From Patescibacteria group bacterium (GTDB lineage: Bacteria > Patescibacteriota > Minisyncoccia > JAHIHE01 > JAGLIN01), in the NCBI GenBank assembly GCA_019428855.1, contig JAHYJV010000002.1, forward strand, positions 1,917 through 65,916: a DNA stretch of 64,000 nt. The letters are read 5' to 3'. A program made the position numbers and the translations under genes. Below, one piece after another: positions 40,246 to 40,475 of this stretch. Numbering within the stretch: position 1 is the first letter of the stretch; the number at the start of each line of letters is the position of its first letter. The notes beneath the pieces were generated by a model. That model had not been told where the DNA came from. It saw only the letters and a program-made list of their open reading frames with translations, and made no database searches.

Positions 40246-40475
40246 CAAAGAAGTGATAGAATTATATGGAAGAATTAACAATTCACACCACTCCTATTAA
40301 AATGATATTAAAAAAAAACTGTTTTAAGCTATCATCCAAGCGACGAGAGGAGTCGAGAGATCCCTCTTAGTCGCGCTAAATATTATCAAATATTAATTCC
40401 AAATAAGAGTGATTTAACGAGGATGCCCCTCATCTTGGGAGACATCTGCTTGATTTCTTGCTTTTGCGTAACAAA

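Follow-up and report, generated by a model that had tools for sequence, protein, structure and literature searches.

Between positions 40246 and 40420 of a 64,000-nucleotide stretch of a Patescibacteria genome (contig JAHYJV010000002.1 of assembly GCA_019428855.1; hereafter the window) lies a conserved sequence module, which an earlier note took for a divergently transcribed small RNA or structured leader linked to a host promoter. What is this module, and why does it stand beside promoters? The 30-nt core motif that accompanies it occurs five times on the plus strand (at 15058, 23778, 40216, 43912 and 58068) when up to three mismatches are allowed, as opposed to none expected from shuffled sequences. 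We have high confidence in the following answer: the stretch 40246–40420 is the interior of a 418-bp MITE (40216–40633), an internal-deletion derivative of an insertion sequence (IS) of the ISL3 family.

The 418-bp element and the other copies in the window

The element, referred to below as copy 3, is complete and lies on the plus strand, with both ends present and no transposase ORF between them. It is bounded by imperfect inverted repeats of the form GGCTCT-N11-TGTGGTGG. The left repeat, GGCTCTACACTAATAACTGTGGTGG, occupies 40216–40240 and equals the motif that had previously been linked to the promoter. Its inverted partner at 40609–40633, GGCCCTTTGTCAAAATGTGTGGTGG when read on the minus strand, follows the pattern CCACCACA-N11-AGAGCC, so the motif is found on both strands. 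The sequences ascribed earlier to 40246–40420 are present at those positions, but the module reaches much further, to 40633. Both ends of copy 3 are homologous to the ends of a full-length IS (L055:720–1996) and of a set of 231–589-bp elements in the Patescibacteria MAG C14-28. Copy 3 is thus short, has both inverted repeats, lacks an ORF and belongs to a multi-copy family, as is typical of MITEs.

The 8-bp flank adjoining the left repeat, TAAATTGT (40208–40215), and the one adjoining the right repeat, AAAATTCG (40634–40641), match at five of eight positions and represent a decayed target-site duplication. Exactly 8 nt from the tip of the left repeat starts the promoter of the host rpsP gene, TTGACA-17-TAATAT, on the minus strand (40179–40207); Pfam confirms that this gene encodes ribosomal protein S16. 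Inside the element, an extended -10 sequence, TGATAGAAT, is located on the plus strand at 40254–40262, 38 nt from the left tip, and is assigned to a vestigial transposase promoter. Next comes a vestige of the transposase mRNA leader (40263–40298, plus strand), which aligns with the '...aattcacaccactcctATGAAAAAAGG' segment of the full-length IS and ends with ATT (40296–40298, offset 80) in the position of the ATG. Further inward are the hairpin GCGACGAGAGG...CCTCTTAGTCGC (40340–40374, plus strand), which was previously regarded as covarying and lies in the element-specific interior, and a strong hairpin of 13–15 bp (40474–40502, minus strand) that is followed by TTTGTT on the minus strand.

Altogether, the window contains five promoter-adjacent copies and a decayed sixth one. 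Copy 1 (15058–15222, plus strand) retains the left repeat, the promoter and leader remnants and a diverged interior block; it has CTG at offset 80, the ATG position, and shares with copy 3 about 100 nt straight after the motif. Copy 2 (23778–23838, plus strand) consists of the left repeat and approximately 35 further nucleotides and lies directly upstream of the 16S rRNA promoter. In copy 4 (43912–44076, plus strand), the left repeat and promoter remnant are followed by an internal deletion in the leader and by the interior block; this copy is upstream of the promoter that now serves ndk. Copy 5 (58068–58129, plus strand) has the left repeat and the promoter remnant, followed by an unrelated small repeat, and is located upstream of the lepB promoter. 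The minus strand carries nearly all of the genes in the window. Pfam matches identify the genes downstream of copies 3, 4 and 5 as ribosomal protein S16, NDK and signal peptidase, respectively, and the gene downstream of copy 1 has no Pfam match. The decamers reported as extended -10 sequences are all in place: GTGATAGAAT at 40253–40262 and 43949–43958, GTGGTAGAAT at 15095–15104 and GTGGTAAAAT at 58105–58114. The block reported as common to copies 3 and 4 is likewise real (40339–40415 versus 44001–44076, 82% identity over 78 nt). The sixth copy (35960–36132, minus strand) is strongly decayed, with a recognisable interior and a barely recognisable left repeat; it differs from the other five in that its left end points at the 3' terminus of a gene for an HD-domain protein (36242–36772) and not at a promoter leading away.

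Relaxed blastn searches of the window detected no right ends for copies 1, 2, 4 and 5, which are therefore best called remnants; only copy 3 has the right repeat. Nor did tblastn find a transposase gene anywhere in the window, so its copies are immobile on their own and would need a transposase supplied in trans. Because the duplication around copy 3 matches at five of eight positions and four of the five promoter-adjacent copies have no recognisable right end, the past mobility of the window copies is a conclusion that we draw from their relatives.

Several other observations were made in the window. The 11 nt outside the left repeat, CAATAAATTGT, are identical in copies 3 and 4 (40205–40215 and 43901–43911), and the corresponding sequence of copy 1 (15047–15057) is similar, whereas the orthologous sites of a sister species differ. 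Simple independent insertion does not explain the 11 nt shared by copies 3 and 4; gene conversion between copies or co-transfer of the flank is possible. A separate small repeat family, whose hairpin-forming segments include CCCTGAGCTTATCGAAGGG ... GGTTCGATAAGCTCACC, is common to the window (58133–58270) and MAG C14-28 (three places in L001 and L002 7472–7573), with one member nested in the L002 element and one following copy 5. The sequence GGCTCTACAGGGCTACCGCTACAATGGAGCC at 58430–58461 starts in the manner of the left repeat (GGCTCTACA), and its two ends (GGCTC...GAGCC) are complementary to each other. The rRNA operon has a 2-kb gap between tRNA-Ala and 23S rRNA (19377–21367) with a 227-aa ORF (19858–20541, minus strand) that matches the transmembrane helices of a mechanosensitive channel, and the match to the 23S rRNA model of 2925 positions extends over 3064 nt. 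The gene at 3017–3547 is flanked by two copies of a perfect 40-nt palindrome (TATATCCTTTTTTCTCACGGCCGTGAGAAAAAAGGATATA and a variant, at 2924–2970 and 3543–3589), which are probably bidirectional terminators.

Full-length relatives and the origin of the divergent promoter

When one genome per species was scanned, the motif turned up nine times in MAG C14-28 and a single time in a Doudnabacteria MAG, and in these copies the conserved sequence continues far past the core motif. The C14-28 elements have the same two ends 230–590 nt apart, and their middles are variable or deleted. Scanning metagenomes for the end in its generalised form, GGCTCT-N11-TGTGGTGG, produced 118 loci, many of them about 100 nt from contig ends, as expected of a repeat that breaks assemblies. 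At several of these loci the two ends are some 1.28 kb apart, delimiting elements of 1277 bp. In one of them (L055:720–1996), a 395-aa ORF lies between the ends, and its product (L055:729–1916, minus strand) matches the Pfam domain DDE_Tnp_ISL3 (1.5e-54) and, at the N-terminus, Zn_ribbon_ISL3 (6e-9), as well as the NCBIfam ISL3 equivalog NF033550 (239 bits versus a cutoff of 180). The parent transposase, encountered in the full-length relatives only, is accordingly a member of the ISL3 family, and the parent IS is widespread in Patescibacteria (CPR bacteria). The presence of a transposase gene between the same two ends also rules out a single large RNA closed by end pairing (GGCTCT with AGRGCC and TGTGGTGG with CCACCACA), which the complementarity of the ends could otherwise suggest.

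The ends themselves agree with this assignment, with GGCTCT-N11-TGTGGTGG found at both. Inverted repeats of ISL3 elements start with GGCTCTTCG, include GTGGTG and are flanked by 8-bp direct repeats (PMC6305408, PMC11448079); a published example is GGCTCTTCGCGGTTGGTGGTGAAT (PMC6305408). The elements described here resemble ISArsp7 (PMC6305408) and the ISL3-derived MITE of Microcystis (PMC11448079) in the GGCTCT start, the GTGGTG and the 8-bp duplication. They share with ISL3 elements a single DDE_Tnp_ISL3 transposase with an N-terminal zinc ribbon, encoded by an ORF that ends inside the right repeat, and with ISL3 MITEs the short, non-autonomous derivatives that keep both ends. Unlike the known ISL3 elements, they form a clade in Patescibacteria, their 11-nt spacers differ between the left (TATACTAA-type) and right (TTGTCAAA-type) ends, and they occupy a strict, oriented position next to the promoter -35, which we did not find reported for ISL3. 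Our literature search, which was incomplete in coverage and gives only a weak negative, returned no report of ISL3 elements in Patescibacteria.

The full-length relatives account for the divergent promoter. In 27 distinct full-length copies, the sequence TGnTAnnnT is located 38 or 40 nt from the left tip, with the transposase ATG at 80–82 or 100–101; in these relatives TGnTAnnnT thus precedes the ATG by 33–52 nt. Among 49 distinct element interiors, 39 have it at offset 38 or 40. Because the offset of 38 in copy 3 matches this geometry, we assign the extended -10 sequence of the window to the transposase promoter. The suggestion that a promoter points away from the host gene is thus very probably correct, but this promoter belonged to the transposase gene and not to a small RNA. 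It would read into the element and hence away from the host gene, and the 35 nt or so past the -10 would be a leftover of the transposase leader with the ATG mutated to ATT. The vestigial promoter may still be active in the window copies.

The parent leader is structured. A segment that reaches from immediately upstream of the -10 into the -10 itself pairs with the one directly preceding the ATG, and between the two lies an inner hairpin. In 14 leader sequences, 90.3% of the cells are paired (shuffled mean 84.2%) and 16 cells have double changes (shuffled mean 7.0), values that none of 500 shuffles reached in either case; the 14 sequences are mutually related, and this kinship inflates the covariation counts. 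Slid controls gave far lower values. Across the first 80–101 nt of the full-length elements (L011–L128), both the long-range pairing and the inner hairpin display compensatory changes. A structured leader following the promoter, as originally proposed, therefore exists and covaries in the full-length elements, but it has decayed in the window copies, where there is no ORF left to regulate. Since only transcripts that enter from outside would carry both arms, the pairing likely serves to occlude the start site in read-through RNA. IS10 and IS50 are known for such fold-back inhibition of read-through transcripts, and the compensatory changes in the parent leader suggest, at the level of sequence, a similar arrangement.

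Two further features of the ends were noted in the full-length IS (L055 720–1996 and others). The right repeat contains an outward TTGACA 7 nt from its tip, and in the left repeat a TATACT begins 6 nt from the tip. Other IS of the copy-out-paste-in type form a junction promoter on a circular intermediate, and by analogy the abutted ends of this IS could generate such a promoter for the transposase. A role of the right end as an outward promoter was considered and not adopted, as the flanks provide no consistent -10 for its internal TTGACA.

Insertion beside promoters

In 79 unique left-end flanks, TTGACA lies exactly 8 nt from the tip, with TATAAT 17 nt beyond it. Positions -14 to -9 of these flanks read TGTCAA (TTGACA on the other strand), with C, A and A conserved in 73, 73 and 76 of the 79 flanks, and positions -37 to -32 form the complement of TATAAT, which results in a 17-nt spacer. 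No promoter signal was detected in 50 unique right-end flanks. Likewise, GTCAA is found at exactly 8 nt from 50 of 80 left ends but from none of 51 right ends. All five promoter-adjacent copies of the window obey the 8-nt rule. The outward ORF begins at a median of 79 nt from the tip, and the genes that start there include those for L21, RpoB, S16 (twice, independently), an EF-G-like GTPase, L27, a cold-shock protein and L10.

The target duplication is 8 bp long. Comparison of left- and right-flank 8-mers produced 10 exact matches representing five distinct 8-mers, as opposed to none in three controls and a mean of 1.1 (maximum 7) in shuffles. Perfect duplications were also seen around short MITEs in L034 and L073. 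Matching duplications are missing around many of the full-length copies contained in single metagenome contigs, a discrepancy that we assume to result from chimeric assembly or from recombination across a multi-copy 1.3-kb repeat; the evidence for duplication was accordingly taken from the cross-contig 8-mer matches and the short MITEs, and the full-length copies on single contigs were set aside. A related family of 476–551-bp MITEs (L034, L039, L061, L065 and L085) comes from a GC-richer host and has perfect duplications of 8–9 bp. In this family TTGACA stands beside either end, depending on the copy, so the orientation rule does not hold strictly for every relative.

One near-identical IS was found with eight different flanks, all with TTG in the same place. 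The pattern hence reflects recent landing sites and not long-term selection. Purifying selection alone was rejected as the cause of promoter adjacency because it would not yield an exact 8-nt spacing and a single orientation in recent, near-identical copies. We infer that the adjacency to the -35 is due to target choice by the transposase, through either direct recognition of DNA or contact with RNA polymerase. The IS would integrate, with an 8-bp duplication, abutting the -35 of a pre-existing sigma-70-type promoter, its left end facing the promoter.

That the promoters came first is seen in a sister species (L129, GCA_030632705.1), in which the SMC protein is 77% identical to that of the window and the gene order ndk-smc-rpsP-KH-trmD is the same. 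The orthologous loci were found through SMC homologues, as exact-protein records of the window S16 and NDK are absent; a C14-28 locus (L003) was unusable for this comparison because its gene order differs. No IS ends were detected in the sister locus, and the spacer between smc and rpsP comprises 132 nt there versus 502 nt in the window. The rpsP promoter of the sister species is 83% identical to that of the window, with homology stopping at the -35 and the 8-mer, where the element is located in the window. In the same way, the promoter adjoining copy 4 is orthologous to that of a CYTH-domain gene in the sister species, which lacks the element there. The family thus displays presence/absence polymorphism at two orthologous sites, and these element-free promoters indicate that the promoters pre-date the insertions.

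The region around copy 4 also differs in gene content. Compared to the sister contig (1704–3094), the window (43726–44118) lacks the CYTH-domain gene and a gene for a 204-aa protein, which in the sister species lie between the gene for a metallo-beta-lactamase-fold protein and ndk. The CYTH promoter now precedes the window ndk, with a leader of approximately 185 nt. Copy 4, without a right end, sits at the junction, and this two-gene loss may have been mediated by the element.

Oriented promoter targeting has been described for TnGBS and ISLre2, which insert 15–17 bp upstream of the -35; TnGBS, together with ISLre2/ISKra4, employs Mutator-like DDE transposases (PMC3942029). The elements described here share with TnGBS and ISLre2 the promoter-targeted insertion into intergenic, 'safe' sites. 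They differ in the distance of 8 bp instead of 15–17 bp, in the absence of conjugation genes and in the transposase, as ISL3 is not a p-MULT transposase. They resemble TnGBS and ISLre2 in target choice and are not members of that group. Promoter targeting by ISL3 elements was not reported in the literature that we searched, a weak negative given incomplete coverage. We consider it fairly probable that the ISL3 clade of Patescibacteria and its MITEs evolved oriented, position-exact integration at the -35 independently of TnGBS and ISLre2, with some of the remnants perhaps co-opted as shared upstream promoter sequence.

Interior hairpins and host functions

An origin as a MITE is compatible with some effect of the element on its new neighbourhood. 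The remnant promoter or the hairpins may have a secondary host function, and the alternative already raised in the earlier note, in which the interior would separate the upstream gene from the downstream promoter as a terminator or insulator, has limited merit. The hairpin at 40474–40502 is strong (-26.6 kcal/mol, with z of about -6.6 on either strand), is suitably oriented, has the smc stop codon (40644) on one side and the rpsP promoter on the other, and is followed by TTTGTT on the minus strand, so that it is a possible terminator for the upstream smc-like gene. However, its U-tract is weak and the consensus terminator scan made no call at 40474–40502. The homologous segments of L002 and L007 align there with a different sequence, and the sister species has no such module at this site. 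The T-run near the other hairpin (40340–40374) is about 20 nt away from it, which is not canonical. We regard a terminator or insulator role as a tentative possibility and infer an incidental terminator effect of the interior hairpins at most.

Co-option of the remnants by the host, with the left repeat and adjacent sequence forming a shared promoter element or regulator site for rRNA, ribosomal-protein and housekeeping promoters, appears improbable to us. The left repeat does occupy an identical position relative to the -35 in all five promoter-adjacent copies, including the one at the rRNA promoter. It survives together with the first 35 nt or so where the rest has decayed (copies 2 and 5), and the flanks of copies 3 and 4 are identical up to the -35. 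Nevertheless, the fixed position is explained by the insertion specificity of recent, near-identical full-length copies, and the sister species uses the same rpsP promoter without the element. The left repeat (27–30 of 30 positions conserved) is not clearly better conserved than the element sequence beside it, and no candidate binding protein was recognised in the window.

In a selected small-RNA gene or structured leader, the hairpin at 40340–40374 would be the functional structure. This hairpin folds in copy 3 (-19.9 kcal/mol, z = -3.7), as does a longer stretch of 253 nt (z = -6.3), but its structure is not conserved, and no covariation above the controls was detected. Homologues of the block were found only in copy 4, in copy 1 (diverged), and in L002 and L007; blastn did not match it to the transposase gene of L055, a full-length element. 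The homologous segments of L002 (z = +1.0) and L007 (z = 0.0), from another genome, fold no better than shuffled sequences, and the hairpin is not kept in copy 4 either (plus strand, z = -0.8). In an alignment of five sequences, 81.4% of the cells are paired versus 79.3% in shuffles (98 of 500 as high), a comparison of low power, and three pairs have double changes versus 1.5 expected (30 of 500 shuffles), again with little power. The sequence of copy 1 that was said to be different and yet to keep the hairpin is a diverged homologue of the same block, with a single G-C to A-U double change relative to copy 3, and the TTCCGC...GCGGAA of copy 2, also cited, falls beyond the 60 nt or so that this copy shares with the family and is hence non-homologous. 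At the gathering threshold, Rfam identified only rRNA and tRNA in the whole window, and the best match of a permissive search of 40100–40700 had an E-value of 0.084, well below the gathering score. Taking these results together, with the promoter and the next 35 nt or so traced to the transposase gene of the parent IS, as its promoter and leader, covariation within the shuffled range, a minus strand that folds about equally well, and large internal deletions among the copies, as in MITE families, a divergent small-RNA gene is highly improbable despite the conserved extended -10-like sequence that points away from the host gene, the local fold and the one compensatory change between copies 1 and 3. 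In the MITE, the 70-nt hairpin block would be element-specific filler that the copies have in common as homologous repeats, and the multi-copy conservation is attributed to transposition, not to selection on an RNA.

Correia elements of Neisseria and similar MITEs are likewise short, multi-copy and intergenic and carry promoter-like and hairpin- or terminator-like sequences, and they can pass for regulatory modules or small RNAs. The promoter hexamers that Correia elements supply face outward; here, in contrast, the host promoter was already in place and the promoter of the element itself is directed inward. For annotation, the repeated 'regulatory motif plus small RNA' of a CPR genome proves to be transposon debris, and scans of candidate-phyla genomes should often run into this motif, which is present at 118 metagenome loci. 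The most interesting result, in our opinion, is the promoter-abutting insertion specificity of this ISL3 clade. It would add a second, unrelated transposase family with a fixed distance and orientation relative to the promoter -35, a pattern that is statistically strong, and the compact 1.3-kb element offers a way to study how a promoter is read by a DDE transposase, by recognition of DNA or by contact with RNA polymerase. If this is true, the elements build up in tiny genomes in front of the promoters of rRNA, ribosomal-protein, rpoB and other housekeeping genes. In genomes of about 1 Mb, one and the same foreign sequence has taken the place of the upstream regions of housekeeping promoters, among them that of the rRNA.
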